A DNA stretch of 64,000 nt from an uncultured Acidobacteriota bacterium (GTDB taxonomy: Bacteria > Acidobacteriota > UBA6911 > RPQK01 > JAPXNP01), in contig CAVZRV010000028.1 in assembly GCA_963777605.1 (NCBI GenBank), positions 96,001-160,000 of the forward strand, read 5' to 3'. A program made the position numbers and the translations under genes. The first letter of the stretch is position 1. Each line of letters begins with the position of its first letter. Below, piece by piece: positions 11,770-58,746 of this stretch. Under the pieces are notes generated by a model, which was not told the DNA's origin, ran no database searches, and was given only the letters and a program-made list of their open reading frames with translations.

Positions 11770-13675
11770 TTGTTCTTCCTGAGTTTCCATCGCAAAGACC
11801 CGCCTCCGGACCATTCCGTCAGAAGCCAGGATGTGATTGGCCACCTGATGCCGTTTGCCCAGCCTGACCGAAGCGGCACTTTCGAAGACTGCCGGGCACT
11901 GCTGATCCAGTGCGTCACTTGGAATACCGCCCCGTCCCGGGAGGAGCCGGCGCCGTTCCGTGACCCAGAATCAGGGGTCCTCGCCGCCGCCTGGGCCCGG
12001 ATCGACAACCGGGAGGAACTGGCCGAAGAGCTTGGCATGTCACGGACGGAGGCCAATCGGATCTGCGACACCGAACTGATCTGCCACTGCTACGGCAAGT
12101 GGAGAGAGGATTGTGTCGATCACCTCGTTGGTGACTTCGTCTTTGTGATCTATGACGAGAAAGAGCGTCGGGTCTTCTGCGGTCGCGACCATATGGGAGT
12201 CCGGCCCTTTTACTACTTTCTCTCCGATGACCGGTTCGTCTGTGCCACCAGCATCGCCCCGCTGCTTCATGTCAAAGACTTGCCAATCCAGATCAGCCGG
12301 AAGTGGATCGTCGACTATCTGACCCGCCTGTCGATGAGTTTTGACGAGACCCCGTATCCGCAAATCCGCAAATTGCCCCCGGCCCACACGCTCACCGTCA
12401 CCCCGGAGCAACATCGTCTCCGACGGTATTTCGAACTCTCGGCGCAACCCGGAGCTGAAGCTGAAGGACTCCCGGGAGTATGTGGACGCCTATCGAGAGC
12501 AGTTGGAAACCGCCATCAAATGCCGGCTCGCCACCGGCTACCCCCTCGGCTCCGAACTGAGCGGGGGCATCGATTCATCGACCATCACCGCCTACGCCGC
12601 GAAATTTCTCGGCCGGCAACTCACCCATTTCCACGCGTTCGCTTTCGCTCACCTGGAGATGGAACCGCAGTACATCCTTGCCGTAAGCCAGGCATACGGA
12701 CTCCCGCACACCCACGTCGTGGCGGATCGCCCCCAGGTTACAGATGCGGTCATTGACCGGTCCCTCAGGATTCTCGGCTATCCAGTCGAACACGGCAATG
12801 CCACGTTCCATGAGCTGTTCTACCAGCTGGCGGAACAACTCGATGTGCGGACCCTGCTGTCGGGATTCGGCGGCGATGAGTTCGGGACGACCATCCACGG
12901 CTACATGGTGCCCATGGAATTCATGGTGAAGAATCGTTATCTGGACCTTCTGAACATCCTCCCCGGGAAATCATTTCTCCGTCCCCTGCGACTCGCAAAG
13001 CTGGCGCTCAGAAGAGTGAAAACAAGGAACTTCACCCGCCCTGCGTACAACCCCCGGTTCTTGCAGGCCTGGAACAACCGCTGGCCCCATCAGATCGTGA
13101 CCGACGAGGCGATCAACGCATTCGATCTAAAGACGCGCCATTTCGAAAATGCCCGGTTTGATGCCGGCTACACCGACCTCAAGCGATTCACCATTGAAAA
13201 GCGCTGGATGCCTTTCGTGCCCACCCGCATGGAGAACTGCACTCTCATGGCCGCCGGGCGCAAGATCGAGTACCGCTGGCCATTGCTGGACGTGCGCCTG
13301 GTGAAACTTTGGCTGAGCATCCCGTCAGAGGAAAACTACTTCAGGGGAATGGGCCGCTACCTTCATCGCCGGGCCATCGTCGGGGTCGTCCCGGATCTGG
13401 TCACCTGGAAGGCAAGTAAGGACATGGGAGATCCCGCTCCGAGTAGTGATGCCGTATCCGAGGCGCGCATGGATACCAACGTCCTGGACCAACTCCATCC
13501 GGATCTGAAAGGACTAATCGACGTCGAGAAACTCACTCGACAGGCCGGCAAGATCGCGGACGCTGACACTGCAAGAACTCCTGCTCTTCGCACTCAGATC
13601 AGTCGCAACCTGCGCGCAGTAAAACACCTCGATTACTGGCTAAAGCACTGTCCACCCGGAGCCTCCATAGTGTAA
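11770..13675 (+). CDS. Lasso peptide cyclase (asparagine synthetase-like, C protein), split by one frameshift near 12445
   Basis: Frame 1 has RIDNREEL, LVGDFVFVIYD and RDHMGVRPFYY. Frame 2 has ELSGGIDSS, LLSGFGGDE and PLLDVRLV. There is no N-terminal catalytic Cys, and B1/B2/precursor genes are nearby. Confidence 0.85.
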
Positions 13676-14941
13676 GCCGGAGGCATCCCCGCGAGCAGGC
13701 CTCCGTGGATGAGCTGGGGGATCAGGGTTCCCCACCCGGTGTTTCCCTCCAGCAGGAAGGGACCCTGATCCGTAACCACGTAATCCCAGGCAATGGCATA
13801 GACATCCCGGAAGTGTTCGTGCGCGGCAATGGAGTGCCCCTTCATTTCGGCCCAGAAGGGGACAGTCCGGTTTTCGGCCCTGGCGTAGGTTCCCAAAGGC
13901 GGGCTTCGGCTCCGACGGGGAATCGATCCGGCGTCCCACGGCAGGGTCTCTCCACTTTCCCGGTCAATCGGAAGAATGATGTGAAAGGCCCGCCCTCTCG
14001 GAAGGGGCTTTTGGCGGCCTCGTTCTGTCATTGGCCCGGGAATCTCCAGCACGGCTGCGTAGCAACGAGCCGATCGACCGGCCGGGGCCTCGGTAATGAC
14101 CCGGACAGTGACGGCATCATCGCTTTCACAGAGTCCGGCCAGGTCGGGATGGTTCGGCATCAGGGGCTGAACCAGGTAGGGTTCCTGTGCCAGGCTCTCT
14201 CGCAGGCGATCCCACGTCGCTGGGCAAGTCGTCATCCCCTGCCGCGTTTCAAACACGGAGAAGACGGGATTCACCACCGTCCCGCTTCACGACAAAACAT
14301 CCCCGCCCGGCCGACCCGTGGCGAGGTTTGACGAAGAGCCCCGGGTACCCGGTCATCTGAACCGACGCACTGAAATCGCCCCCTGGAGGAATCACTTCCA
14401 GGGTGGGAACCATGGGAATGCCATCTTGACCCAGGATTTCGGCTGTCGCCTGCTTATCTCCGAGAATCCGTCCAGACTCACCGCGGTTCCCGTTTCGCAG
14501 ATCGCGCCATCGATGAAATGCCGGTAGTTCATGGGTGAAGACGTAATTCCAAATCCGCTTGTCTTGACCCTTCCGATACAGCCGGAAAGCATATGTTTCC
14601 GACGGCGGGATACAGCAAGCCAGCGCAACCCGAATCACACGCAGGAACTGGGAGATCATCCCCATGCCGTCCCTATCCCTGACGGTTGGCCCCAGCCGCC
14701 TGACCGCGCGAAAGGTCCCCCGCCAGGAGGAGAAAAGCGTCCAACGGAGATAGAGAAACGCCTCCATCACCAGGAAGAGCGGGAGAGGAGCCCGGGGAAA
14801 GCCCTTGAGCCAGAGACTTCGGTGAATGCGGACTTCAGGAGCTTGACGGGGCAAAAGATAGCGGGGACTCACCAATCCGTGGGGCAGCGAGCGGTTCAGG
14901 AGATGGCGCCTCACGAAACTCCGGAAACTCATCTTGGCCAT
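13633..14941 (-). CDS. Sugar-transfer-associated-type ATP-grasp protein, frameshift near 14275
   Basis: ILGDKQAT, LFVKPRHGSAGRG, YLVQPLMPNHP, TVRVIT and IAWDYVVTDQGPFLLEGN; start overlaps the stop of the upstream gene. Confidence 0.75.
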
Positions 14942-16261
14942 CCCGTCCCCAGCGAAGACGAAGGAGGAACCTCTCCCGAAGGAATCTCCGAGTCCGGCAC
15001 GACGACACCCCGAACGCGAAGTAGCCGGCCGGTGTCGGGGGACAGCTCTTTCGAGCTCCATTCGGAGCGACTCTTCACATCACAGCCCAGGCCAAAGTAG
15101 AAATCGCCGTTCAGGATTTCGAATGCCCGGGCGAACGTCGAAGCGGTGAAATGCAGGACCTCGAACCATTCCCTTAGATCACGGCTGCCGATTACCGCGA
15201 CCTCAACGCCGGCTTCACCGGTCGGCCCCTGCAAAAGCACAAACGCGACTCCATCTTGAACGATCAGGTCTCTCGGAAACGTCCGATCCGGCAGCCGGAT
15301 GCGGGCGACCCGGCAGTTTCGAGGCGCCAGGGACTCGGCCCGATAGAGCCCGAATGGGAGCGGACCGGCGGAGCCGATGTAGAGCGCCGCATCGCCCACA
15401 GCCGTGGCCCGATGGATCGAGGATGCTCGCCCCCGGACCTCCGTCGTTTCAGGAAACAACTCCCCGGCGGTGAGGTCGGGCCTGCGCGAAAAGCCCTTCC
15501 CGTCTTCGGCCAGTTCGTAAACCGCGGAATAGTACTTCTCCCGGCCATGGTGCAGTGATCCACGTCTCCAGCCCCGGGCCGGGAAAAACGTCGGTGGCGT
15601 AGAGCCGTCCCGAGACCTGGAGAAAAGTCTGAACGGCATATCCGCCCAGTGGAAAAACCTTCCACGATCCGCCGCGATCTTCGGATACCGCGACCGCCGA
15701 GCCGTAGCCATTGAAATCGACATACCAGGGGACCGTATCCGTAGCCTTAAGCCCGACATAGAGACTCCCGGCGTGGCCAGTCAGAGCGGCGGCATGAATC
15801 GCCCGGGGAATCGTCCGCAACTTCCGCCAATTTCCGCCGGGTTCCCGGCGATAAAGGTTTCCGAGCTCCCAGCCTTCTCTCGGATCGGCACCCGGAATGT
15901 AGAGCGTATCCTCGACGATCTCAAAGCGGCTGATCTCCTCTTCGTCGACTTCCCCTTCCCGAACCACCGTTCCTGCGTCCGGGTCCCACGCCAGAATCGG
16001 CACCGGTCCCGCATTCGGGGCAGGACCGCTGTTGTCGTAGTTGCCCGCGCCGATATAGAGACGCCCGCTGAAAGCCTGCAGGTCCCAGACGTTGCGTGCA
16101 TAGACGGCATCTCCTCCTGAATAGCGGTCAGCAAACGGGATACCAAGGTCCTCGACGCTAGCTGCCCCTCCGGAAAAAGGGCTCACCGGGGGCGCCGGAA
16201 AGCAAAGTCCCCCCATAAACAGAACAGCCAGGACAGTGAAAAGGCTGGCTCGAAACTTCAA
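14929..16261 (-). CDS. Secreted beta-propeller-like hypothetical protein, frameshift near 15555
   Basis: Signal peptide KFRASLFTVLAVLFMGGLCFPA; repeated blades (FSGRLYIG, HAGSLYVG, VSGRLYA, LNGDFYFG); Asp-box SEDRGGSW. The longer ORF call upstream runs through repeat DNA. Confidence 0.6.
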
Positions 16262-16325: not shown

Positions 16326-17188
16326 CAGAGCCGGGGACGCGATCGTCGGCTGGATCCTGGTTCCTGGCCCGGCAACAGTTCGGCGGTTCGCCAAAGTTCC
16401 GCAGGCGCAGGCCCGGTGAGGGCCTGCCTCTGTGTGCTCGACGGTCTTGCGGCTGGCGCCAAAACACAGAGCCGGGGGTAAGGCGAAGCCGCGCCCCCGG
16501 GTTCCTGGCCCGGCACCAGTTCGGCGGTTCGCCAAAGTTCCGCAGGCGCAGGCCCGGTGAGGGCCTGCCTCTGTGTGCTCGACGGTCTTGCGGCTGGCTC
16601 CAAAACGCAGAGCCGGGGGTAAGGCGAAGCCGCGGCCCCGGGTTCCTGGCCCGGCACCAATTCGGCGGTTCGCCAACGTTCCGTGGGCGCAGGCCCGGTG
16701 AGGGCCTGCCTCTGTGTGCTCGACGGTCTTGCGGCCGGCGCCAAAACACAGAGCCGGGGGTAAGGAACGCGCCCCCGGGTTCCAAAACACAGAGCCGGGG
16801 GTAAGGCGAAGCCGCCCCCCCGGGTTCCTGGTCCGGCACCAGTTCGGCGGTTCGGCAAAGTTCCGTGGACGCAGGCCCGGTGAGGGCCTGCCTCTGTGTG
16901 CTCGAGGGTCTTGCGGCTGGCGTCCAGACGCAGAGCCGGGGGTAAGGAACGCGCCCCCGGGTTCCAAAACACAGAGCCGGGGGTAAGGCGAAGCCGCCCC
17001 CCCGGGTTCCTGGTCCGGCACCAGTTCGGCGGTTCGGCAAAGTTCCGTGGACGCAGGCCCGGTGAGGGCCTGCCTCTGTGTGCTCGAGGATTTTGTGGCT
17101 GGCGTCCAGACGCAGAGCCGGGGGTAAGGCAAAGCCGCGCCCCCGGGCACATCAGGTCAGGTTTCACTCGATGCCGCGCCCCCGGGCA
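16326..17188 (+). repeat. Palindromic repeat array A (REP/BIME-like), 5 units of 141 or 182 bp
   Basis: Units start at 16360, 16501, 16642, 16824 and 17006. Each has the hairpins GCAGGCCC-GGTGA-GGGCCTGC and CCGGGGG-TAAGGCGAAGCCGCG-CCCCCGG; an optional 41-bp module is present in some. Confidence 0.95.
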
Positions 17189-17259: not shown

Positions 17260-17562
17260 TCAGTCTGCGTCTTCCACGATCCGGATCGTGCCGTCAGACG
17301 CCAAGTCGTTCAGAAAGTCCAGGACGTCCTCCTGACAACGGCCCTCGTCAACCTCGTAGCGCGCCATCATTGTCTCGCAGATCTCCGACACCCGAACCGG
17401 GTTCTCAAGAAGATCCCAGATTTCACTGGCAATCACGTCAAGCCCGGAATAGGTGCCGTGTTCGACGCTCATCATGACCACTTCATCGTCGAGCAGGCTG
17501 GTTAAAACCTCCTCGGAACGGGCGATCGTCGATCCCAGTTCGACGGTCTTCTGTTTCTCCAT
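17260..17562 (-). CDS. Lasso peptide RRE (PqqD family, B1 protein)
   Basis: LDDEVVMMSVEHGTYSGLDVIASEIWDLLENP...CQEDVLDFLNDL; directly downstream of the precursor. Confidence 0.92.
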   Translation of the reverse strand: MEKQKTVELGSTIARSEEVLTSLLDDEVVMMSVEHGTYSGLDVIASEIWDLLENPVRVSEICETMMARYEVDEGRCQEDVLDFLNDLASDGTIRIVEDAD

Positions 17563-18030: not shown

Positions 18031-18813
18031 GGCGCGATCGTCGGCTGGATCCGGGTTCCTGGTCCGGCACCAGTTCGGCGGTTCGGCACAGTGCCGTGGA
18101 CGCAGGCCCGGTGAGGGCCTGCCTCTGTGTGCTCGAGGATTTTGCGACTGGCGTCCAGACGCAGAGCCGGGGGTAAGGAACGCGCCCCCGGGTTCCAAAA
18201 CACAGAGCCGGGGGTAAGGCGAAGCCGCCCCCCCGGGTTCCTGGCCCGGCACCAGTTCGGCGGTTCGGCAAAGTTCCGTGGACGCAGGCCCGGTGAGGGC
18301 CTGCCTCTGTGTGCTCGACGGTCTTGCGACTGGCGCCAAAACACAGAGCCGGGGGTAAGGAACGCGCCCCCGGGTTCCAAAACACAGAGCCGGGGGTAGG
18401 CGAAGCCGGCCCCGGGGTCCCTGGCAGGGCAACGCGTTTGGGAGAGTCACGCAAAGCCAGAATGGGTGCTGTCGCCAGAGCATACCGACGGCTTGTGGGT
18501 TGGTGGGCGACCCCGTGGACGCAGGCCCGGTGAGGGCCTGCCTCTGTGTGCTCGACGGTCTTGCGGCTGGCGCCAAAACGCAGAGCCGGGGTAAGGCGGC
18601 CCCGCGCCCCCGGGTTCCTGGCAGGGCAACGCGTTTGGGAGAGTCACGCAAAGCCAGAATGGGTGCTGTCGCCAGAGCATACCGACGGCTTGTGGGTTGG
18701 TGGCGACCCCGTGGGCGCAGGCCCGGTGAGGGCCTGCCTCTGTGTGCTCGACGGTCTTGCGACTGGCGCCCAGACGCAGAGCCGGGGGTAAGGCGAAGCC
18801 GCGCCCCCGGGCA
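18031..18813 (+). repeat. Palindromic repeat array B, 4 units, mosaic of two linker types
   Basis: Same hairpins as array A. The first two units carry the array-A linker; the last two carry the linker found in the RAYT-flanking array at 41-45.6 kb. Confidence 0.95.
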
Positions 18814-18886
18814 TGTCGGGTAAAACTTCAACTCTCTGAATCATTCCCCGCGAGGTCGGAGTTCCCCAAGAGAACAAGAGCAAAAG

Positions 18887-19165
18887 TCAGTCTGCGTCTT
18901 CCACGATCCGGATCGTGCCGTCAGACGCCAGGTCGTTCAGAAAGTCGAGGACGTCCTCCTGACAACGGCCCTCGTCGACCTCGTAGCGCGCCATCATTGT
19001 CTCGCAGATCTCCGGACTCGAACCGAGGTACAAGGTCCCAGATTTCAGTGGCAATGTCAGCCCGGAATAGGTGCCGCGTCGACGCTCATCAAGACACTGC
19101 ATGCTGCAGGCTGGTAAAACCTCCTCGGAACGGGCGATCGTCGATCCCAGTTCGACGGTCTTCTC
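18887..19165 (-). pseudogene. Second copy of the lasso RRE (PqqD/B1), disrupted by indels
   Basis: C-terminal EICETMMARYEVDEGRCQEDVLDFLNDLASDGTIRIVEDAD is identical to 17260-17562; the 5' half is homologous at DNA level but contains several indels. Confidence 0.8.
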
Positions 19166-19731: not shown

Positions 19732-20631
19732 ATGGGCGGTTTCCATCGGTACCACGTTTTTGGTCTGAATATCGAATCGGCGATCCCGTTTCTGGACATC
19801 CCGGAGACGGAAGGCGCTGCCGACGTGACCATCGACTACGGCACGGTACCTGATGACCTCCCCGGCGCCACGATCAAAGGAGTCCGTTATCAGGCGGGCG
19901 GGGGGGAATTTCTTCTTCGGGTGGACAACGTGGCCCGATACTACGTGGCAAACGGCGCCACGATCATCGTTGAACCGCATCCAGGAGGAGCGGACCACGA
20001 GATTCTTCTCTTCTTGATGGGCTCGGCCATGGGGGCCCTCCTGCACCAGCGCAAGGTCCTGCCTCTGCACGGCAGTGCCGTCAGTCAAGACGGCAGCGGC
20101 ATTATCTTCCTCGGCCCGTCGGCCATCGGCAAGTCGACCCTGGCGGCGGGATTTCAGAAACAAGGTTACGCGCTGCTGGCAGATGACGTCTGCGCCGTAA
20201 CCGCCCAAAACGGGGACACTCCACGCATCATTCCGGGTTTTCCTCGCCTCAAACTGTGGAGGGATGCCCTGGAAAAGCTTGAAGAGAACAAGAGGGGATT
20301 GAATCGGGTTCGCCTCGACGAGACCTTCGAGAAGTACTTCCTGCCTTTTCAGCAACCTCAAAGCGATCCGGTTCCGGTCGGTGCCGTATTTTTACTCAAG
20401 ACGACCAACACCGATACGCTCGCACTTTCCGAACTGAAAGGGAATGAGAAGATCGATCCCCTGATTACCAACACCTACCGGGCCCGGTTCCTCAAGGGTA
20501 TGGGCGACAAGAGGGAACACTTCAGACTCTGTGCGGCCGTTGCCGGAAAAGCTTCGGTCTTCCAGGTCACCAGACCCCTCAAAGGGTTTCGGCTGGAAGA
20601 ATTGATGGCTCTCGTGGAGGAGCATTTTTGA
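19732..20631 (+). CDS. HPr kinase-like lasso peptide tailoring kinase
   Basis: PLHGSAV, Walker A GPSAIGKST, LADDV and PGFPRLKLW; paeninodin-type cluster context. Confidence 0.85.
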   Translation: MGGFHRYHVFGLNIESAIPFLDIPETEGAADVTIDYGTVPDDLPGATIKGVRYQAGGGEFLLRVDNVARYYVANGATIIVEPHPGGADHEILLFLMGSAMGALLHQRKVLPLHGSAVSQDGSGIIFLGPSAIGKSTLAAGFQKQGYALLADDVCAVTAQNGDTPRIIPGFPRLKLWRDALEKLEENKRGLNRVRLDETFEKYFLPFQQPQSDPVPVGAVFLLKTTNTDTLALSELKGNEKIDPLITNTYRARFLKGMGDKREHFRLCAAVAGKASVFQVTRPLKGFRLEELMALVEEHF

Positions 20632-27067: not shown

Positions 27068-28810
27068 ATGAGTCTGTTCCGGCTTCCGGCCGCTCTTACA
27101 GCTCAGGTCAGGCGATTTCTGTCCGGCGCCGGTTACCGCGGAATCCTCCTCTTCTTTTTGACTCTCACTGCCGGACTCTTCCAGGGGGCAGGTCTGATGC
27201 TGCTGATTCCCCTCCTGCACATCATCGGCATCGGCGATAAGGAAGGGGCCGCCGACAGTATCACTCGTTGGATCAGTCGAGGCTTTGACCTCCTCGGCCT
27301 CCCCCTCAATCTGCCCATGGTCCTGGCAGCGTTCGTCGTGCTGGCGTCGATCCAGGCCCTTCTCCTGTTCGGGCAATCCGTGCTGGGAACGTCTCTGGTT
27401 CAGGACTACATTCGCTCGCTCCGCAACGATCTCTTTCGGGGGATGGCGATGGCTCCCCCATCCCACCTCTCGAAGCGGAGGGCTTCCGACCTCCTCCACC
27501 TGACGGCACATGACATCAATCAAGTCGGCGCCGGAACCCAGCAGGCTTTTAACCTGGTGCGTGACCTGCTCATTTCGCTGGTCTTCGTCGGGCTGAGTTT
27601 CACGATTTCGGTCCCGCTAAGCCTGCTGGCTCTGCTGAGTGGACTTATTCTTGTGGTCCTTCTGCGGCCGCTCAATCGAACCTCACAACAGACCGGGCAG
27701 AGATTGCGGAACAGAATGGAGGCACTCACGGCTGACGTCTCGGACCTGTTGTCGGGTTTGAAGCTCGTCAAAGCATTCGGACGGGAGTGCACGGCAATCG
27801 AGCGATTCAGAGAGAGAAACGACGAGACCTGGTCGGAGCAGATCGGTTTCGTCAAAGCCAGGTCGGGGACCCAGGTTTTTTCGCAGATCGGCAGCGCTAT
27901 CACGATGGCGCTCTTCGTGTTCGTCGCGTCTAAAGGGCTCATGATCCCGGCCTCGGAGTACCTGGTCATGATTCTGCTCTTCTCCCGCCTCCTCCCTCGG
28001 GTTTCCGCCCTGCAGCAGTCATGGCAGTTCATTTGCCACAGTCAATCTTCACTGGATGCGATCCAGAATGCTCTGACGGAACTATCGGCCCACCAGGAGG
28101 CACCGCTGAAGTTTTCCGAGCCACCCCTCCAACTGCGGAAGAAGATCACCTTTTCGGAGGTCACCTTTCGTTATGCTCCGGGCCTCGAACCCGCAGTCCG
28201 GAGCCTGAAGTTCGAAATCCCGGCCGGGCAGATCACCGCTGTTCTGGGTCCTTCCGGATCGGGGAAGACGACGATGGCGGACCTCATCGCCGGCCTGCTT
28301 TCCCCGGAAACAGGTTCGATTTCGGTGGACGGTAGGCCGCTCGACCGTTTCCTGGTTCCTCGATGGAGACGGTCCATCGGTTACGTCCCCCAGGAGAGCT
28401 ACCTCTTTCACGAGTCCATCCGGTCCAACCTCCTCTGGGCCCGTCCTGAAGCCTCGGAGGATGAACTCTGGGACGCGCTGCGCCTTGCGGGAGCCGAACG
28501 GTTCGTGTCCCGTCTCGATCGAGGGCTCGACACGGTCGTTCGGGACCGGGGGGGCCGACTCTCCGGCGGCGAACGACAGAGGGTCGCCCTGGCGCGTGCC
28601 CTCCTGATTCGGCCGACCCTGCTCTTGCTCGACGAGGCAACCAGCGAAGTGGACCGAAAGAGTCAAGAGCGAATCCTCGACTCGGTGGCCGGTCTCAAGG
28701 GAAAGATGACCGTCGTGATCATCGCCCACCATGCCCCGGTTGAAGGCATCGCCGACCAGGTGCTGGTGATGGAACAGGGGAGCGTCCGCGTTTCCAAGCT
28801 GGTTCACTGA
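27068..28810 (+). CDS. ABC exporter, fused permease/ATPase (candidate lasso exporter)
   Basis: Transmembrane domain followed by GPSGSGKT, LSGGERQR and LLLLDEATS. Confidence 0.88.
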   Translation: MSLFRLPAALTAQVRRFLSGAGYRGILLFFLTLTAGLFQGAGLMLLIPLLHIIGIGDKEGAADSITRWISRGFDLLGLPLNLPMVLAAFVVLASIQALLLFGQSVLGTSLVQDYIRSLRNDLFRGMAMAPPSHLSKRRASDLLHLTAHDINQVGAGTQQAFNLVRDLLISLVFVGLSFTISVPLSLLALLSGLILVVLLRPLNRTSQQTGQRLRNRMEALTADVSDLLSGLKLVKAFGRECTAIERFRERNDETWSEQIGFVKARSGTQVFSQIGSAITMALFVFVASKGLMIPASEYLVMILLFSRLLPRVSALQQSWQFICHSQSSLDAIQNALTELSAHQEAPLKFSEPPLQLRKKITFSEVTFRYAPGLEPAVRSLKFEIPAGQITAVLGPSGSGKTTMADLIAGLLSPETGSISVDGRPLDRFLVPRWRRSIGYVPQESYLFHESIRSNLLWARPEASEDELWDALRLAGAERFVSRLDRGLDTVVRDRGGRLSGGERQRVALARALLIRPTLLLLDEATSEVDRKSQERILDSVAGLKGKMTVVIIAHHAPVEGIADQVLVMEQGSVRVSKLVH

Positions 28811-33091: not shown

Positions 33092-33262
33092 CTCGACCCT
33101 CCTGCCAAGTTGGAAACCGCCCTTCTGAGCAGAATACGCCACCCCCTTTCGAGGATCAAACGTTCATTTTTAACGAGTTGGGAAAACCTGGGGGAACTGG
33201 GTTTTCGAGGGATCAGTTCAATCCCGGTGAGAGCTACTCGCACTCCAAGAGGATGGCGCCGC

Positions 33263-33306
33263 ACGCAGAGCCGGGGGTAAGGCGAAGCCGCGGCGCCCCC
33301 GGGTAC
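33263..33306 (+). repeat. Solo copy of the array hairpin
   Basis: ACGCAGAGCCGGGGGTAAGGCGAAGCCGC...CCCCCGGGTAC matches arrays A and B; intergenic. Confidence 0.85.
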
Positions 33307-39940: not shown

Positions 39941-40663
39941 ATGAGAGTCTCGCTTCTATTTGTTTTCACTATTATTACAGCACTGTGCACGAGTCCCTGC
40001 CCGGCCCAGGAGGAACGCGACGTTCCTCTGCTGATTGTGACAGGAGACGCCACCGTCAGTTCGGCGCCCGATCAGGCCCTCGTTCGTCTGGGGGTGGTCC
40101 GGCAGAGCGGAACGGCCGACGAGGCCCAAAAGCAAGTCAGTTCGGCAGTGCGGAAAATCCTGGAGAGCCTCCGCGAGTTGGACATTGACTCGAGAGATCT
40201 TCAGACGTCTCAGCTTACCCTGTTTCCGGTCTACTCGGATCGCCGGCCCGAGCCGAATCGCCCTTCCGAACCGACGATCGTGGGATATCGAGCCAGCAAC
40301 ATCGTTTCCGCCACCGTGAACAGATTGCAGGGAATCGGAGTTGTGATTGATTCGGCGCTGACCGCAGGGGCAAACCGAATCGAGGGGATCAATTTCCGAC
40401 TGAAGAACGACACCGCGGCCCGGGACGAAGCATTGACGGCGGCGGTGGCCGAGGCCCGCCGAAAGGCCGAGGTTATGGCTGCAGCAGCAGGAGTCGAGAT
40501 CGTCGGCATCCTGGAAATCGCAGAGCAGAACGTTTCGGTGCGTCCATTCTCCGCCCGGCCTGAGGCCATGATGGCCAGGGCCGCCGTGGAGACTCCCGTC
40601 GAGCCGGGCGAGGTCGATGTAACCGCCACAGTGACAATTCGTTATCGAATTTCCGGGAACTGA
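39941..40663 (+). CDS. SIMPL (DUF541) domain protein
   Basis: Signal peptide; VTGDATVSSAPDQA, GANRIEGINF and VEPGEVDVTATV. Confidence 0.9.
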   Translation: MRVSLLFVFTIITALCTSPCPAQEERDVPLLIVTGDATVSSAPDQALVRLGVVRQSGTADEAQKQVSSAVRKILESLRELDIDSRDLQTSQLTLFPVYSDRRPEPNRPSEPTIVGYRASNIVSATVNRLQGIGVVIDSALTAGANRIEGINFRLKNDTAARDEALTAAVAEARRKAEVMAAAAGVEIVGILEIAEQNVSVRPFSARPEAMMARAAVETPVEPGEVDVTATVTIRYRISGN

Positions 40664-42532
40664 CTTCAACTCGGAAGACCTGGGAAAACTGGGGAATTTG
40701 GATGCGTCTGGGTGGAGATGGAAGCTTCCCAACCGTACCCACTGTCAACGGCCGTTGGGAACCCCGCGCCGAAGGCTCGTTGGTCTGGTGGTGCTCCCCC
40801 ACTTTCACCGACAACCAGGCCAATGACAGGGCGAGTGGATTTCATAGCCGCAGTCTACCGACTTTGGGCAGGCCAACGCACTTTTGCAGACGATTGCCGC
40901 GATTTCCCTCCCGTTGAGGGCCTGATGAGTCGGCTCCATTGAAAGGACAATTCCAGGGTCAACGTCCAGAAAGTGTTTGGGCGCCAGCCGCAGGACTGTT
41001 GAGTACTCTGCGTTTGGGCGCCAGCCGCAGGACTGTTGAGTACTCTGCGTTTGGGCGCCAGCCGCAGGACTGTTGAGTACTCTGCGTTTGGGCGCCAGCC
41101 GCAGGACTGTCGAGTACACAGAGGCAGGCCCTTCACGGGCCTGCGTCCGCGGGGTCGCCACCAACCCACAAGTCGTCGAAAAGCTTTGGCGACAGCACCC
41201 ACTCCGGCTTTGCGTGACTCTCCCAAACTCGTTGCCCTGCCAGGTACCCGGGGGCGCGTTCCTTACCCCCGGCTCTGAGTCTGGGCGCCGGCCGCAGGAC
41301 TGTCGAGTACTCTGCGTTTGGGCGCCAGCCGCAGGACTGTTGAGTACTCTGCGTTTGGGCGCCAGCCGCAGGACTGTCGAGCACACAGAGGCAGGCCCTT
41401 CACGGGCCTGCGTCCGCGGGCTCGCCACCAACCCACAAGTCGTCGAAAAGCTTTGGCGACAGCACCCATTCCGGCTTTGCATGACTCCCCCAAACTCGTT
41501 GCCCTGCCAGGTACCCGGGGGCGCGTTCCTTACCCCCGGCTCTGGTCTGGGCGCCAGCCGCGACTGTTGAGTACTCTGCGTTTGGGCGCCAGCCGCAGGA
41601 CTGTTGAGTACTCTGCGTTTGGGCGCCAGCTGCAGGACTGTCGAGTACACAGAGGCAGGCCCTCACCGGGCCTGCGTCCTCGGGGTCGCCACCAACCCAC
41701 AAGCCGTCGAAAAGCTTTGGCGACAGCACCCACTCCGGCTTTGCATGACTCTCCCAAACTCGTTGCCCTGCCAGGTACCCGGGGGCGCGTTCCTTACCCC
41801 CGGCTCTGCGTCTGGGCGCCAGCTGCAGGACTGTTGAGTACTCTGCGTTTGGGCGCCAGCCGCAGGACTGTTGAGTACTCTGCGTTTGGGCGCCAGCCGC
41901 AGGACTGTCGAGTACACAGAGGCAGGCCCTTCACGGGCCTGCGTCCGCGGGGTCGCCACCAACCCACAAGTCGTCGAAAAGCTTTGGCGACAGCACCCAC
42001 TCCGGCTTTCCGTGACTCTCCCAAACTCGTTGCCCTGCCAGGTACCCGGGGGCGCGTTCCTTACCCCCGGCTCTGAGTCTGGGCCCAGCAGGACTGTTGA
42101 GACTCTGCGTTTGGGCGCCAGCCGCAGGACTGTCGAGCACACAGAGGCAGGCCCTTCACGGGCCTGCGTCCGCGGGCTCGCCACCCACCCACAAGCCGTC
42201 GAAAAGCTTTGGCGACAGCACCCACTCCGGTTTCCGTGACTCCCCCAAACTCGTTGCCCTGCCAGGTACCCGGGGGCGCGTTCCTTACCCCCGGCTCTGA
42301 GTCTGGGCGCCGGCCGCAGGACTGTCGAGTACTCTGCGTTTGGGCGCCAGCCGCAGGACTGTTGAGTACTCTGCGTTTGGGCGCCAGCTGCAGGACTGTC
42401 GAGTACACAGAGGCAGGCCCTCACCGGGCCTGCGTCCGCGGGGTCGGCACCGTACCGTAGGCCCACGAAAGTCGAAACTAAGCTGGGAAGTCAGCTACGT
42501 GCGTTCGGTTCTCAACGTCGGTCCGACTCGTA

Positions 42533-43093
42533 CTACAATCCATCCTTGTAGTCTTTCCATTTCGGATTCAGGTAAGTCTCCAGTGGTTCCCCTTGCTGGT
42601 TCAGCACGTAATCGATCGCTCCCGGGATGTCCCTGGCGGTCCACAGGAACCTTCGGCTTCCCTTCCCGATCCACCGTCGCCGACCAATTGGGTCGAGTCC
42701 TTGATTGACTAGGTCCCGCCCGGCCCTCTCCTTGATTCGCGCCAGAATCTCCTCGGACTCCACGGCGGCTGAAATGACCGAATGGAGATGGGTTGTCCGA
42801 ACGTGTGCTGCGATCAGTTCCCACTCGTTGCTATTGCATGCCGTTTTGACCGACTCCATCACAAGTCTCCGTCTCGATCGGTTCATCCTATATCGCTCCT
42901 GGACCATACACGCTCCGTTTTCCGATTCCCATCTCGGATTCGGAGACAGATAGGGTGCCCCGTACCGGTTGTGCTTCCGATTCACAGATCCTTTGCGACT
43001 TCCATGCAAGTGGTGGCCGTAGCACTTCAGGGTCACCAGATAGGCCGCCGGAAAGTTAATGAGTGAGTAGGCAGAGAATTCATATTCATTCAT
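42533..43093 (-). CDS. HUH/Y1 tyrosine transposase, RAYT-like, copy 1 (186 aa)
   Basis: AYLVTLKCYGHHLHG N-terminus, HUH motif THLH and catalytic Tyr in IDYVLNQQG; flanked by palindromic repeats. Confidence 0.8.
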   Translation of the reverse strand: MNEYEFSAYSLINFPAAYLVTLKCYGHHLHGSRKGSVNRKHNRYGAPYLSPNPRWESENGACMVQERYRMNRSRRRLVMESVKTACNSNEWELIAAHVRTTHLHSVISAAVESEEILARIKERAGRDLVNQGLDPIGRRRWIGKGSRRFLWTARDIPGAIDYVLNQQGEPLETYLNPKWKDYKDGL

Positions 43094-44493
43094 CAAATCT
43101 ATACACGTTCGAACTGAGCAAAACTGCGAGAGTCGTCGAACACACTGAGGCAGGCCCTTAACGGGCCTGCGTCCTCGGGGTCGCCACCAACCCACAAGCC
43201 GTCGAAAAGCTTTGGCGACAGCACCCACTCCGGCTTTGCATGACTCTCCCAAACTCGTTGCCCTGCCAGGTACCCGGGGGCGCGTTCCTTACCCCCGGCT
43301 CTGCGTTTGGGCGCCAGCCGCAGGACTGTCGAGTACTCTGCGTTTGGGCGCCAGCCGCAGGACTGTTGAGTACTCTGCGTTTGGGCGCCAGCCGCAGGAC
43401 TGTTGAGTACTCTGCGTTTGGGCGCCAGCCGCAGGACTGTCGAGTACACAGAGGCAGGCCCTTCACGGGCCTGCGTCCGCGGGGTCGCCACCAACCCACA
43501 AGTCGTCGAAAAGTTCTGGCGACAGCACCCACTCCGGTTTCCGTGACTCTCCCAAACTCGTTACCCTGCCAGGTACCCGGGGGCGCGTTCCTTACCCCCG
43601 GCTCTGCGTCTGGGCGCCAGCCGCAGGACTGTTGAGTACTCTGCGTTTGGGCGCCAGCCGCAGGACTGTCGAGCACACAGAGGCAGGCCCTTCACGGGCC
43701 TGCGTCCGCGGGCTCACCACCAACCCACAAGTCGTCGAAAAGCTTTGGCGACAGCACCCACTCCGGCTTTGCGTGACTCTCCCAAACTCGTTGCCCTGCC
43801 AGGTACCCGGGGGCGCGTTCCTTACCCCCGGCTCTGCGTTTGGGCGCCAGCCGCAGGATGTTGAGTACTCTGCGTTTGGGCGCCAGCCGCAGGACTGTTG
43901 AGTACTCTGCGTTTGGGCGCCAGCCGCAGGACTGTCGAGCACACAGAGGCAGGCCCTTCACCGGGCCTGCGTCCGCGGGGTCGCCACCAACCCACAAGTC
44001 GTCGAAAAGCTTTGGCGACAGCACCCATTCCGGCTTTGCGTGACTCCCCCAAACTCGTTGCCCTGCCAGGTACCCGGGGGCGCGTTCCTTACCCCCGGCT
44101 CTGAGTCTGGGCGCCAGCCGCAGGACTGTTGAGTACTCTGCGTTTGGGCGCCAGCCGCAGGACTGTCGAGTACACAGAGGCAGGCCCTTCACGGGCCTGC
44201 GTCCGCGGGGTCGCCACCAACCCACAAGTCGTCGAAAAGCTTTGGCGACAGCACCCACTCCGGTTTCCGTGACTCTCCCAAACTCGTTACCCTGCCAGGT
44301 ACCCGGGGGCGCGTTCCTTACCCCCGGCTCTGCGTTTGGGCGCCCAGCTCGCAGGACTGTCGAGTACACAGAGGCAGGCCCTCACCGGGCCTGCGTCCGC
44401 GGGGTCGCCACCGTACCGTAGGCCCACGAAAGTCGAAACTAAGCTGGGAAGTCAGCTACGTGCGTTCGGTTCTCAACGTCGGGCCGACTCGTA

Positions 44494-45054
44494 CTACAAT
44501 CCATCCTTGTAGTCTTTCCATTTCGGATTCAGGTAAGTCTCCAGTGGTTCCCCTTGCTGGTTCAGGACGTAATCGATCGCTCCCGGGATGTCCCTGGCGG
44601 TCCACAGGAACCTTCGGCTTCCCTTCCCGATCCACCGTCGCCGACCAATTCGGTCGAGTCCTTGATTGACTAGGTCCCGCCCGGCCCTCTCCTTGATTCG
44701 CGCCAGAATCTCCTCGGACTCCACGGCGGCTGAAATGACCGAATGGAGATGGGTTGTCCGAACGTGTGCTGCGATCAGTTCCCACTCGTTGCTATTGCAT
44801 GCCGTTTTGACCGACTCCATCACAAGTCTCCGTCTCGATCGGTTCATCCTATATCGCTCCTGGACCATGCACGCTCCGTTTTCCGATTCCCATCTCGGAT
44901 TCGGAGACAGATAGGGTGCCCCGTACCGGTTGTGCTTCCGATTCACAGATCCTTTGCGACTTCCATGCAAGTGGTGGCCGTAGCACTTCAGGGTCACCAG
45001 ATAGGCCGCCGGAAAGTTAATGAGTGAGTAGGCAGAGAATTCATATTCATTCAT
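44494..45054 (-). CDS. HUH/Y1 tyrosine transposase, RAYT-like, copy 2
   Basis: Near-identical to copy 1 at an offset of 1961 bp; one amino-acid change seen (P/R). Confidence 0.8.
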   Translation of the reverse strand: MNEYEFSAYSLINFPAAYLVTLKCYGHHLHGSRKGSVNRKHNRYGAPYLSPNPRWESENGACMVQERYRMNRSRRRLVMESVKTACNSNEWELIAAHVRTTHLHSVISAAVESEEILARIKERAGRDLVNQGLDRIGRRRWIGKGSRRFLWTARDIPGAIDYVLNQQGEPLETYLNPKWKDYKDGL

Positions 45055-45727
45055 CAAATCTATACACGTTCGAACTGAGCAAAACTGCGAGAGTCGTCGA
45101 GTACACAGAGGCAGGCCAGGCCTGCGTCCGCGGGGGCGGCACCCACCCACAAGTCGTCGATAAGCTTTGGCGACAGCACCCACTCCGGTTTCCGTGACTC
45201 TCCCAAACTCGTTGCCCTGCCAGGTACCCGGGGGCGCGTTCCTTACCCCCGGCTCTGTGTCTGGGCGCCAGCCGCAGGACTGTCGAGTACTCTGCGTTTG
45301 GGCGCCAGCCGCAGGACTGTCGAGCACACAGAGGCAGGCCCTTACACGGGCCTGCGTCCGCGGGGTCGCCACCAACCCACAAGTCGCCGAAAAGCTTTGG
45401 CGACAGCACCCATTCCGGCTTTGCGTGACTCTCCCAAACTCGTTGCCCTGCCAGGTACCCGGGGGCGCGTTCCTTACCCCCGGCTCTGTGTCTGGGCGCC
45501 AGCCGCAGGACTGTTGAGTACTCTGCGTTTGGGCGCCAGCCGCAGGACTGTTGAGTACTCTGCGTTTGGGCGCCAGCCGCAGGACTGTCGAGCACACAGA
45601 GGCAGGCCCTTCACGGGCCTGCGTCCGTGAGTTTGGCAGCTCCCGATCGCAGCCCCGTCTCACGATAGAATAGTGGACTAAGTAAGTCTGAGACCTCACC
45701 AGAACGGAATCATCGGAGGATTAACTG

Positions 45728-46783
45728 ATGCATAACGCTAAAGCCTATTCCGCAGCGAGCGCGACCTCGCCGCTTTCCCCAACAACGATCAACCGGCGTG
45801 ACCCAACCGATCGCGACGTGCAAATCGAAATTCTCTTCTGCGGCATTTGCCATTCGGATCTCCACGCAGTCCGAAGCGAGTGGACCGGCTTTCCCACTGT
45901 CTACCCGATCGTCCCCGGCCATGAGATCGTCGGGCGAGTCACCAGGGTCGGTTCAGCCGTGACCAGGTTCCAGCCCGGCGACCTTGCCGGCGTCGGATGC
46001 ATGGTCGACTCGGACGGGACCTGCCCCTCTTGCCGAGATGGCCTCCAACAGTTCTGTCCGAACATGACTCTCACCTACAACTCACCGGATCCGCACCTCG
46101 ATGGCGTCACCTACGGGGGCTACTCCGACAGCATCGTTGTCGATGAGCGTTTCGTCCTCCGCGTCCCGTCCAATCTCGAACTGTCCGGGGCGGCACCTCT
46201 GCTCTGCGCCGGAATTACCACTTACTCACCGATGCGCCGATGGGGCGTCTCCGAAGGACAGAAGGTGGGCGTCGTCGGCCTCGGAGGACTGGGTCATATG
46301 GGGGTAAAGTTCGCCCATGCGTTCGGAGCCCACGTCGTGGTCTTCACTACCTCACCCAGCAAGAAAGAGGACGCGCTTCGCCTCGGTGCCAACGACGTGG
46401 TCAATTCTCGGAACGAAGAGGAAATGCAAGAGCATGCCGGCAGTTTCCACTTCATCCTCGATACCGTCTCCGCCCGGCACGACATCAATGCGCTGATCCA
46501 CCTGCTCGGGCGTGACGGCAACCTGGCCCTTGTCGGTGCGCCGGATGATCCCCTGGCCGTCTCCGCGATGGGCCTCCTGTTCGGACGCAAGAGCATTTCG
46601 GGTTCGCTGATCGGCGGAATCGCCGAGACCCAGGAGATGCTCGACTTCTGCGGCCGGCACAACATCACCTCCGACGTCGAAGTCATTCCGATCCAGAAGG
46701 TCAACGAAGCCTACGAGAGAATGCTCAGGTCCGATGTGAAATTCCGCTTCTCCATCGACATGGCTTCGCTCAAGTCCGAGTAG
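45728..46783 (+). CDS. Zn-dependent NAD(P) alcohol dehydrogenase (cinnamyl-ADH family)
   Basis: CGICHSD, GHEIVG, APLLCAGITTYSP and GLGGLG. Confidence 0.92.
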   Translation: MHNAKAYSAASATSPLSPTTINRRDPTDRDVQIEILFCGICHSDLHAVRSEWTGFPTVYPIVPGHEIVGRVTRVGSAVTRFQPGDLAGVGCMVDSDGTCPSCRDGLQQFCPNMTLTYNSPDPHLDGVTYGGYSDSIVVDERFVLRVPSNLELSGAAPLLCAGITTYSPMRRWGVSEGQKVGVVGLGGLGHMGVKFAHAFGAHVVVFTTSPSKKEDALRLGANDVVNSRNEEEMQEHAGSFHFILDTVSARHDINALIHLLGRDGNLALVGAPDDPLAVSAMGLLFGRKSISGSLIGGIAETQEMLDFCGRHNITSDVEVIPIQKVNEAYERMLRSDVKFRFSIDMASLKSE

Positions 46784-56767: not shown

Positions 56768-58746
56768 CCCAAGTTCGTCACGAAAGCGCTTGAGCGAGTT
56801 GTAAGTCGTTTAGATTCAGTCAAGCGCTTTGCAAAGTCTCCACTACACTCGGATTGAAGTCGAGCCGTTCCGGCAGGGTGATCTTCAACTGATTGAGCAG
56901 TTGTTTCTGTTCCGGTTCGGGCCGGGTCACCCGTCGCAGCCGGATCTCCCGTCCGTCGGTCGTCGGCAAGACGATGTCCGCACTCTGGATCGTCGACAGC
57001 AGGCTCAGTGCCCGGGCCGGGGACAGATCCGAACCGCGTGCTTTCAACAGGTGCTTGAGCGTCACCCACAGCGCATAACCGAGAAACGCCACCAGGACGT
57101 GGGCCTTGATCCGGCTCTCCTTGCGGTGGAAGATCGGCCGGATCGCCAGTTCACTTTTCAGCGTCCGGAACACCGACTCGACTTCGGTCAACTGGATGTA
57201 CTTCGTCCACAACTGCTCGGCCGTCTCCGCTTCCAGGTTCGTGCGCAGCAGATAAGCCCCTTCCCGCAACTCCTGCCAGTCCCGCCGCTCCTGCCGGTAA
57301 CTCCAGACCAGGCGAACTCCCTGCGGCGTGGTCTGGATCTCGGCCTCATACAGGTCGGCCACCTGGGGGTGACGGGCCAGGATCCCGCCCAACTGCCGTT
57401 CCATCTTCAGCCGGTCCTTCAACCGCCCTGTCTCGATCCGTCGGGCCAGGCTCTCGAGGGCCGTTTCCAGCCGATTCGAAAACCGGCTCCGGATCGCTGT
57501 CTCCTTCTCCTGTCGGGCCCGCGTCCGGCACAGCACGTAGGTCTCTTCTCCCGACGGCACCCGCACCAGCTTCACCTCCACGTCCTCTCGCACCGCGGCC
57601 CAGTCTTCGGCCAGCAGTTCCTGTTCAAACTCCTTCAGCTTCGCCCGTGGGGTTCCGACCAGATACCGGGCTCCCCGCTTGCGCAGCACCTTCAGATTGG
57701 CTTCGCTGACAATCCCCCGGTCGAACACCCACACCCGCCGCGCCTTTCCGTACTTGCGTTCCAGCACCCGCAACATCGTCTGCAGCGTCGTCACATCGGC
57801 CCGATTGCCGTCAAACACCTCATAACTGCACGGAAACCCTTCCGGATTGACCACCAGGGCCAGCACCAACTGCTTGCAGTCCGGGCGATGGTCCCGCGAG
57901 TAGCCCCGGCGCAGCATCCGGTTCTCCTCGCCCTGTCCCTCCACATACGTGCTCGTCAGGTCATACAGCAGGACGTCGAACGACGCTTCGAACAGTTCCC
58001 CGTAGCGTTGTTTCAGGTGCGTCTCCAACGCTGCCTTGTGTCGGACCAGTCGGTCCAGGCAGCGGTACAGGCGCGTATCGTTCAGCTGACCCGATGCGAT
58101 CCCCACCAGGTCATCCAGCGCCGTCGTTGGATACCAGGTCTGTTCGATGCCCCGTTCGCTGGCCGGCGCGATCAGTCGGTTGACGGCCAGTACGGCTGCT
58201 ACCCGGGACCACGGCACGTCGGCCGTTTCCCCATCCAGCAACCGCTCCAGCAGTCGATCCAGACCCAATTTCCGCCACAGTTCCAGCCCTACATAGCAAT
58301 CCCCGAACCGTCGCGAGCGCTCCAGCCGGACCTGACCCAACAGCACTCGGGCCACCCCAGGATCTTCTTCCACCGCAACGTCGGATGGAAACAGCTTCAA
58401 CTGCCGGCTCTCGCCCTGTTCGTTGAAGACCTCCACCGTCTTCAGCCACCGGCTCTGGGCCGAGTCGTTCAGTTCACCCAGGTAACAGAGCGTGCGCTGC
58501 CGGGGTCCGTCGGCCGTCCGCACGGTCTCCACCAGTGACCAGTAGGTGTGTTCCTTGCCGTCTTTAAATCGCCGATTCGGGCGCAGAAACATGCTTCAGA
58601 GATGGTGCCATTTCGCCACCAGGCCGCGCAATGGGGTAGGTCTACACTACATCGGGTTTTGGAAAATCGACCGTTGGAAACAAAAGACTTGCGGTCAAAA
58701 GGTCGCTGAAAATCGTCAGGAATGGCCCTTTCGTGACGAACTTGGG
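56768..58746 (-). mobile_element. Complete IS1634-family insertion sequence
   Basis: Perfect 19-bp TIRs CCCAAGTTCGTCACGAAAG (56768-56786 and 58728-58746); TTAG direct repeat on both flanks. Confidence 0.9.
56820..58592 (-). CDS. IS1634 family DDE transposase
   Basis: YWSLVETVR, LYDLTSTY, GYSRDHRPD, VFDRG, VESVFRTLK and RPIFH. Confidence 0.93.
   Translation of the reverse strand: MFLRPNRRFKDGKEHTYWSLVETVRTADGPRQRTLCYLGELNDSAQSRWLKTVEVFNEQGESRQLKLFPSDVAVEEDPGVARVLLGQVRLERSRRFGDCYVGLELWRKLGLDRLLERLLDGETADVPWSRVAAVLAVNRLIAPASERGIEQTWYPTTALDDLVGIASGQLNDTRLYRCLDRLVRHKAALETHLKQRYGELFEASFDVLLYDLTSTYVEGQGEENRMLRRGYSRDHRPDCKQLVLALVVNPEGFPCSYEVFDGNRADVTTLQTMLRVLERKYGKARRVWVFDRGIVSEANLKVLRKRGARYLVGTPRAKLKEFEQELLAEDWAAVREDVEVKLVRVPSGEETYVLCRTRARQEKETAIRSRFSNRLETALESLARRIETGRLKDRLKMERQLGGILARHPQVADLYEAEIQTTPQGVRLVWSYRQERRDWQELREGAYLLRTNLEAETAEQLWTKYIQLTEVESVFRTLKSELAIRPIFHRKESRIKAHVLVAFLGYALWVTLKHLLKARGSDLSPARALSLLSTIQSADIVLPTTDGREIRLRRVTRPEPEQKQLLNQLKITLPERLDFNPSVVETLQSA

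Follow-up and report, generated by a model that had tools for sequence, protein, structure and literature searches.

A probable class 3 REPtron in an uncultured Acidobacteriota bacterium, with its TnpA-Y1 gene present twice in a 4.6-kb array of footed hairpins

Introduction

TnpA-Y1 proteins have been divided into an IS200-like class 1, the tyrosine transposases associated with repetitive extragenic palindromes (REPs), or RAYTs, of class 2, and a small class 3 (Quentin, Siguier, Chandler and Fichant 2018; PMC6006769). Class 3, as described there, comprises 14–24 proteins of median length 178 aa from Planctomycetes, Acidobacteria and Proteobacteria, with a profile of about 155 aa, an extended conserved N-terminus and the motifs NHVH and YV[VI][AENY]EQ (Y----Q). 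Its loci are presented as REPtron-like, with flanking structures that carry a 5' CnGA foot and that "resemble both IS and REPtrons" (IS, insertion sequence). Solibacter usitatus has about 600 such structures together with three closely related genes, and the class is proposed as a possible evolutionary bridge from IS200 transposases to domesticated RAYTs (PMC6006769). Here we analyse a stretch of 64,000 nucleotides from an uncultured Acidobacteriota bacterium (GCA_963777605.1, contig CAVZRV010000028.1, positions 96,001 to 160,000 of the forward strand; hereafter the window), in which two nearly identical Y1 genes lie within a 4.6-kb hairpin array, array 1.

In class 2, Escherichia coli TnpA-REP catalyses strand transfer in vitro, which has been proposed to assemble tandem bacterial interspersed mosaic elements (BIMEs), and BIME-2 elements are described as ones that "occur as multiple tandem copies", their number varying between loci and strains (Ton-Hoang et al. 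2012; PMC3333891). A first-pass annotation of the window had read the long head-to-tail layout of array 1 as the mark of an atypical element. We find instead that the locus is probably a REPtron of a class 3 TnpA-Y1, that is, a gene of the HUH/Y1 type (two histidines on either side of a hydrophobic residue, and one catalytic tyrosine) inside arrays of its own cognate REP-like hairpins.

Results

Array 1 is a run of hairpin doublets with outward-facing feet

Array 1 was divided by cutting at every copy of hairpin 1 (GCAGGCCC-loop-GGGCCTGC), which gives the following pieces.

40975..45627, + strand: array 1 as a whole, 4.6 kb; four-module lead, 12 composite units, two gene intervals, terminal hairpin 1 with GTCCG
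40975..41123, + strand: lead of four 37-bp modules (GTTTGGGCGCCAGCCGCAGGACTGTYGAGTACTCTGC), 149 bp
41124..42412, + strand: units 1–5, of 267, 264, 267, 225 and 266 bp, with 3, 3, 3, 2 and 3 modules
42413..43149, + strand: gene interval 1, 737 bp between consecutive cuts at hairpin 1
43150..44373, + strand: units 7–11, of 304, 229, 266, 231 and 194 bp, with 4, 2, 3, 2 and 1 modules
44374..45110, + strand: gene interval 2, 737 bp, differing from interval 1 at 8 positions
45111..45601, + strand: units 13–14, of 223 and 268 bp
45602..45627, + strand: terminal hairpin 1 with GTCCG, 26 bp, the right end of array 1

Cut in this way, the array reads as a four-module lead, five units, a gene interval, five units, a second gene interval, two units and a terminal hairpin, which bears out the layout of five units, gene, five units, gene and two units plus a partial one that the first-pass annotation had given. 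Its description of the unit, as two GC hairpins followed by a variable run of a 37-bp module, also holds for the 12 units, one of which has a damaged hairpin 1. They span 194–304 bp, carry one to four modules each, and run from a CAGAG foot and hairpin 1 through a core of about 103 nt to hairpin 2 with CTCTG and then the modules. Tandem Repeats Finder reports 37-bp arrays (92–99% matches) nested in higher-order periods of 229–267 bp over 40975–45592. A 29-nt module pattern, allowing up to three mismatches, has 33 matches in the window (0.00 expected from 100 shuffles), 31 of them inside array 1 and the remaining two near 16.4 and 18.6 kb.

Hairpin 2 (CCGGGGG-N11-CCCCCGG) is identical in all 12 units. 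Hairpin 1 has an 8-bp stem that is constant across units and a loop that varies, being 5 nt long in nine of the 12, 6 nt in two and deleted in unit 13. This last copy (45111–45125), which adjoins the interval of gene copy 2, is the exception to the constancy of the stem, having lost the loop and part of the stem (GCAGGCCAGGCCTGC). Variation across the 12 units affects 28 of 155 core columns and none of the last 44, which hold hairpin 2 and its foot. DNA folding predicts both hairpins of one unit, as separate hairpins, on either strand. Every junction between modules (for example 41305–41312) is a perfect 8-nt palindrome, GAGTACTC, through which module runs could form 8-bp stems with 29-nt loops. 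Just beyond the two ends of the array, 40905–40930 and 45628–45660 bear a weak likeness to array parts: CCCGTTGAGGGCCTG resembles half of an inverted hairpin 1 and GTTTGGCAGC the start of a module, and both may be decayed copies.

On the top strand, CACAGAG stands directly 5' of 14 of the 15 hairpin-1 copies in array 1, and CACTGAG of the other. All 12 copies of hairpin 2 are followed directly by CTCTG, the bottom strand reading CAGAG at that place. The earlier statement that everything lies in direct orientation is right for the units and wrong within them, where the feet of hairpin 1 and hairpin 2 are on opposite strands and face outward. The succession of foot and hairpin 1, core, hairpin 2 with inverted foot, 37-bp linker module or modules, and the next foot and hairpin 1 occurs 12 times. 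REPs alternating in orientation, with linkers of two kinds between them, are the defining pattern of BIMEs, and each unit is a BIME-like doublet of a REP and an inverted REP (iREP). It is not a REPIN, in which two inverted copies of the same REP form a long hairpin, because hairpin 1 (GCAGGCCC...) and hairpin 2 (CCGGGGG...) are unrelated in sequence. With units that are BIME-like, and with tandem amplification of BIMEs already described (PMC3333891), the head-to-tail architecture loses the atypical character that had been claimed for it.

The same hairpin family recurs elsewhere in the window, as a second array in two parts and as a solitary element.

16326..17150, − strand: array 2a, same hairpin family, inverted; 5 hairpin-1 and 7 hairpin-2-type copies, all footed, in variant shorter units
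17260–17562, − strand: PqqD-family gene (Pfam E=1.3e-18)
18040..18812, − strand: array 2b, 4 hairpin-1 and 6 hairpin-2-type copies
about 18880–19150: second PqqD copy, frameshifted, a degraded duplicate
33262..33305, + strand: solitary hairpin-2-type element with a CGCAGAG foot, intergenic

The order in array 2 is array, PqqD-family gene, array and frameshifted PqqD copy. In two units of array 2b the core resembles the array 1 core. The hairpin-2-type copies of array 2 have other loops, and its feet are in mirror arrangement relative to array 1. From the solitary element it follows that the hairpins also occur singly, as REPs do. A foot stands at the stem of all 50 family hairpins in the window (15 hairpin-1 and 12 hairpin-2 copies in array 1, 9 hairpin-1 and 13 hairpin-2-type copies in array 2, and the solitary one), and its sequence is C[AG]CAGAG at 49 stems and CACTGAG at the remaining one. 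One foot is common to three different hairpin sequences at three loci, and the footed hairpins are most likely the enzyme's own recognition sites.

The two genes encode a protein with a predicted HUH/Y1 fold

42533..43093, − strand: Y1 gene copy 1, 186 aa; HUH histidines H102 and H104 (THLH), predicted catalytic Tyr162 in YVLNQQ
44494..45054, − strand: Y1 gene copy 2, 186 aa; distinguished from copy 1 by one amino acid (P/R) and by 3 nt in the open reading frame (ORF)

The gene copies are 98.9% identical and lie 1961 bp apart. The unique segment of gene interval 1 (42452–43134, 683 bp) has direct copies of hairpin 1 at both borders, in agreement with the cassette of about 685 bp between direct hairpin copies described at first pass. 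The product is a single Y1 domain of 186 aa, without a helicase or a second tyrosine. His102, His104 and Tyr162 are intact in both copies, and the H-x-H pair together with the tyrosine is found in 147 of 156 family sequences.

A single-sequence phmmer search against the PDB returned nothing relevant. The family profile (174 positions) matches the IS200 transposase 2f4f with the HUH strands aligned, and Pfam Y1_Tnp is matched by 90 of 100 scanned family members at E≤0.01. We then modelled the window protein with AlphaFold2 from an alignment of 100 sequences, the query and 99 of 155 relatives chosen by length (155–200 aa), and obtained a predicted local distance difference test score (pLDDT) of 93.7. 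In a Foldseek search of the PDB the best match of this model is 4er8_A, the E. coli TnpA-REP structure that includes a REP hairpin (E=3.4e-5). The TnpA proteins of IS200, ISDra2 and IS608 come next, and all four matches have probability 1.00 and target-normalised template modelling (TM) scores of 0.52–0.64. The ranking was unchanged for an earlier model built on 8 sequences (pLDDT 68). As far as prediction goes, the HUH/Y1 fold of the window protein is established. The initial identification of the ORFs as RAYT-like HUH/Y1 genes is upheld by the family profile, by the Y1_Tnp matches among relatives and by the predicted fold, and the relationship extends to IS200.

Alternative upstream starts lengthen the Y1 ORFs through the repeats, to 401 aa (44494–45699, −) and 239 aa (42533–43252, −), and gene callers would yield spurious long proteins from such starts. 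Of the 33 family representatives that reach 230 aa or more, 15 have internal exact repeats, with periods of 13–47 aa in some and 227–297 aa in others, which may stem from this start artefact or represent direct repeats flanking the domain.

Motifs, size and flanks probably place the protein with class 3

A word-indexed search found 7 relatives only, of which three bear the name RayT in their source. When 1.84 billion representatives were searched with a profile, the result was 3557 clusters at 50% identity with E≤1e-3, the weakest of which may include other Y1 classes, 2152 with E≤1e-10 and 478 with E≤1e-30. The class 3-like family is far larger than the 14–24 sequences published in 2018.

Among 156 family sequences NHVH is the commonest HUH form (60), followed here by THVH (38), and the two histidine positions are kept in 156 and 154. 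The consensus combines NHVH with YV[LVI]xxQ; Y-x4-Q is present in 146 and valine at +1 in 132 of the 156, and the YVLNQQ of the window protein fits Y-x4-Q. Upstream of the core, T21, Y25, G26, L29 and G31 are near-invariant in the 100-sequence alignment and form an extended conserved N-terminus. The HUH motif type, Y-x4-Q, the N-terminus and length, and CnGA-footed flanks with copies elsewhere are all features of class 3 that recur at this locus. For class 2 RAYTs one expects Y-x3-NP and GT[AG]G-footed REPs, where the window has YVLNQQGEP and a CAGAG foot. For class 1.1 (IS200/IS605) one expects a match to the family's profile hidden Markov model (HMM), many copies of the element as a unit and, often, a tnpB partner. 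Here the HMM score falls below its cutoff, there are two copies, both in one array, and no tnpB-like ORF was found among those scanned. On motifs, size, taxa and flanks, then, the protein fits class 3 TnpA-Y1 and would not be an unclassified oddity. The atypical element of the first-pass annotation gives way to a protein that agrees with a described class in its motifs, its taxonomic range and its REP-like flanks.

Repeats bridge the gene at related loci

We collected 39 related loci from one-genome-per-species contigs, in 37 of which the context reaches 150 bp or more on each side of the gene. They come from Acidobacteriota (Bryobacterales/Solibacter and others), Planctomycetota (Pirellulales, Gemmatales, Phycisphaerales and Thermoguttaceae) and Lentisphaerae, and the best relative among them is 43% identical. 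A strict search for footed perfect hairpins near the relatives found few, because class 3 REPs are bulged, and was replaced by the detection of repeat pairs. Short repeats bridge the gene in 31 of the 37 loci, in direct orientation in 24, inverted in 26 and both in 19. Many of the bridging repeats read C[ACG]GA[AG]CCGCGACCGTNAGGGAGCGG, for example ACGAGCCGCGACCGTCAGGGAGCG, like class 3 REPs in the supplement of PMC6006769. A degenerate pattern, CNGAGCCGCNACYGT, occurs in 6 of the 39 loci and adjoins the gene in three of them (L007, L034 and L036).

The longest long-period arrays at these loci measure 726 bp (L037; 370 bp × 1.9), 477 bp (L004; 141 bp × 3.4) and 272 bp (L022). The flanks of homologues, which the first-pass annotation had proposed to examine for arrays, gave a divided answer, with bridging repeats common and arrays short. 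In L037, a Thermoguttaceae contig from a metagenome-assembled genome (MAG), the array at 1–726 has at least 1.9 copies of its 370-bp unit and runs to the contig start. The unit holds three perfect hairpins, two of which are inverted copies of each other, and the array lies directly upstream of a 27%-identical relative. It is the closest analogue of the architecture of array 1, and array 1 is the extreme case among the related loci. The count over the 39 loci is biased, because many of them lie on MAG contigs from short reads, which break off in or close to repeats (for example L016, L036 and L037), and arrays in relatives are probably under-assembled. Searches of plasmids (DNA and protein) and of phages (protein) gave no related match.

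Surroundings of the arrays

At gathering thresholds Rfam gave no matches anywhere in the window, and the repeats accordingly belong to no known RNA family. A coding reading of the repeats was rejected; of the four long ORFs that traverse the array (281, 267, 252 and 225 aa), none reaches the cutoff of a Pfam family, and one has a sub-threshold match to DUF6448. A promoter and terminator scan of 40600–45800 found no promoter-like sites, and two terminator-like sites against 4.4 expected.

The genes around array 1 are ordinary chromosomal ones. A SIMPL gene lies upstream, KatG and a zinc alcohol dehydrogenase lie downstream, and several sulfatases are present as well. An ORF at 56820–58592 (−) has a DDE_Tnp_1 transposase domain (E=3.9e-13) and is an unrelated insertion-sequence-type gene. 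Array 2 has as neighbours an Asn_synthase gene (12341–13675), an ATP-grasp-like gene (14249–15061), an HPr-kinase-like gene (19732–20631) and an ABC transporter (27068–28810), and this neighbourhood looks like a lasso-peptide-type cluster disrupted or duplicated by the repeats. GC skew on the plus strand is negative in 28 of 32 2-kb bins and cumulative skew falls steadily; the minus strand, which is sense for the Y1 gene, would then be leading-strand sequence.

Discussion

If the locus is a class 3 REPtron, as seems likely, its workings can be sketched by analogy with relatives of solved structure and assayed activity, namely E. coli TnpA-REP and the TnpA proteins of IS608 and ISDra2. Like these three relatives, the enzyme would bind the footed hairpins extruded in single-stranded DNA, cut near them through Tyr162 and an HUH-bound metal, and then rejoin the strands. 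Such cutting and rejoining would seed the repeats across the genome and diversify them. The 4.6-kb array itself may have grown by local tandem amplification, with the numbers of 37-bp modules and of units changing by slippage or by unequal recombination between direct repeats, and with enzyme-catalysed strand transfer possibly helping. A segmental duplication of about 1.96 kb would have carried the gene along, the gene lying between direct copies of hairpin 1 and of the units. The gene "cassettes" would on this account be the REPtron gene duplicated in its own flanking array, not special insertions.

The copies themselves bear on how this happened. The two gene intervals have the same length of 737 bp and differ at eight positions, three of them in the ORF. 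Among the units, the closest pairs are 1 and 4 (one difference) and 3 and 7, 8 and 11, and 1 and 9 (two each), and position-matched units of the two five-unit blocks differ by 4, 10, 8, 6 and 5. Unit variants are mosaic and the array has been reshuffled. A single recent copying of a block of five units plus gene was rejected, the blocks being without positional correspondence. The PqqD-family gene is duplicated in the same layout in array 2, which favours array-mediated segmental duplication over rolling-circle amplification by an HUH enzyme. Most economically, direct repeats would favour unequal recombination around whatever gene they flank, and the Y1 gene would owe its duplication to this process.

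Several points weigh against a class 3 REPtron. At the 39 related loci no further copy of the gene lies within about 8 kb, and no array exceeds 726 bp. The first-pass annotation had made the novelty of its element depend on whether a described class shares this organisation, and here the outcome is split: class 3 is REPtron-like, but the size of the array and the second gene are unmatched at those loci. The search with the Y1_Tnp model, proposed at the same time, came out both ways as well, since the window protein itself, at 16.4 bits, stays below the cutoff of 23 even though most of its scanned family members match. It scores 16.3 bits against a cutoff of 55 with NCBIfam transpos_IS200 and 14.4 bits against 80 with NCBIfam REP_Tyr_transpos. 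Its HUH motif is THLH, not NHVH, and the assignment to class 3 rests on motifs, size, taxa and flanks. For class 3 enzymes, no activity is reported in the TnpA-Y1 literature surveyed. In contrast to the Y and Z REPs of E. coli, hairpins 1 and 2 share no sequence relationship, and they are perfect GC stems where the published class 3 structures are weak and bulged. A single sequence fits recombination and enzyme-driven amplification alike, and array 1 may be mis-assembled. Lastly, direct flanking hairpins as in IS200/IS605, together with two copies 98.9% identical, are IS-like traits.

These last traits raise the possibility, which we regard as unlikely, of an autonomous IS200/IS605-like element. 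Here the stretch from hairpin 1 through the gene to the next hairpin 1 would be mobile and would have transposed twice into a pre-existing array, each time beside its own hairpin. The gene-less units would be derivatives resembling miniature inverted-repeat transposable elements (MITEs), inserting head to tail, each element recreating the target. The direct, not inverted, hairpins are what is found at IS200/IS605 ends, the two copies share the 737-bp span as well as their near-identity, and the protein also has a class 1-like Y-x3-Q (YVLNQ). Direct repeats bridge the gene in 24 of the 37 loci with context, and four long family proteins have internal repeats 227–297 aa apart, consistent with direct repeats flanking the domain. 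However, both copies sit in one array in the same junction context, with no other copy in the 64 kb, and the gene is single within ±8 kb at all 39 related loci. PqqD, which is no transposase, is embedded and duplicated in the same layout. There is no adjoining tnpB-like ORF among the ORFs scanned, there are no plasmid or phage matches, and the NCBIfam IS200 score is far under its cutoff.

An intermediate between the two is also conceivable, though we give it little credence. Class 3 Y1 proteins could be true intermediates between insertion sequences and domesticated RAYTs, with a hairpin-1-bounded gene that is still mobile and an enzyme that time and again inserts excised single-stranded units beside its own footed hairpin, each element restoring its target, thereby building head-to-tail arrays. 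If so, the array would document self-targeted transposition that builds arrays, and not recombination. With its two perfect hairpins, single foot and two strands, it would also serve as a defined set of substrates for working out how an unstudied HUH class operates.

Still less probable is the mechanism that the first-pass annotation had favoured, in which HUH nicking at a hairpin drives rolling-circle or replicative amplification of the whole block of five units plus gene. HUH enzymes of other families initiate rolling-circle replication. The five units before each gene copy and the gene spacing of 1961 bp would suit this mechanism, and strand transfer by TnpA-REP can assemble tandem BIMEs in vitro (PMC3333891). 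Units at matched positions nevertheless differ by 4–10, against 1–2 in some non-matched pairs, and module counts differ between the blocks. The enzyme is a single 186-aa Y1 domain without a helicase or second tyrosine, and no mechanism of this kind is needed to explain how PqqD was duplicated in array 2. We find no specific support for rolling-circle amplification in the locus. Least probable of all, and very doubtful in our view, is a passive satellite, that is, a slippage or recombination repeat unrelated to the enzyme in which the gene sits by chance or is decaying: nested 37-bp copy-number variation is typical of slippage, 40600–45800 lacks a promoter-like site and the hairpin adjoining gene copy 2 is damaged, but both ORFs are intact with their catalytic residues, a class-specific foot stands on three hairpin types at three loci, and relatives in other phyla are also flanked by footed repeats.

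Taken as a probable class 3 REPtron, the locus is a natural substrate set, with two intact genes and 50 footed hairpins of three kinds that share one foot and lie on both strands. Copy number varies at two nested scales in array 1. The enzyme's choice of strand, hairpin and foot becomes testable, as does any part it has in driving tandem amplification. Such arrays also break short-read assemblies and produce spurious long ORFs. We regard the locus as a good experimental handle on an unstudied HUH class, and not as a new kind of element.

Comparison with known systems

IS200/IS605 elements and their MITE-like derivatives share with this locus the Y1 HUH fold, hairpins of the same strand on both sides of the gene, and near-identical copies. 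The locus differs from them in having no tnpB, an HMM score below cutoff and copies seen in one array only, and its gene-less hairpin elements vastly outnumber the gene.

The likeness to the E. coli REPtron and BIME-2 (class 2.2; PMC3333891, 4er8) is closer. In both, a Y1 gene is bordered by arrays of footed hairpins in which REP and iREP alternate in foot orientation with two kinds of linker, and in which copy number is variable and copies are well conserved within a locus. E. coli TnpA-REP (4er8) is also the best structural match of the window protein model. The foot here is CAGAG and not GTAG, the motif is Y-x4-Q and not Y-x3-NP, and unit length is several-fold greater. In descriptions of the E. 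coli system the gene is single copy; here there are two.

The closest match is with the class 3 loci described in PMC6006769. The window protein resembles their products in its HUH and Y-x4-Q family motifs, in its length (186 aa against a median of 178), in its taxonomic setting and in its N-terminus. The loci are alike in the CnGA(G) foot abutting the stem, in the copies elsewhere and in having, sometimes, more than one closely related gene per genome. The word "tandem" is absent from the main text of that paper. The present locus differs from those described there in its perfect GC stems, its 12 composite units, the nested 37-bp module and the presence of the gene twice in the array. What is new here is scale and regularity: units of 194–304 bp with two unrelated perfect hairpins, one foot and a nested module, and two genes among them.

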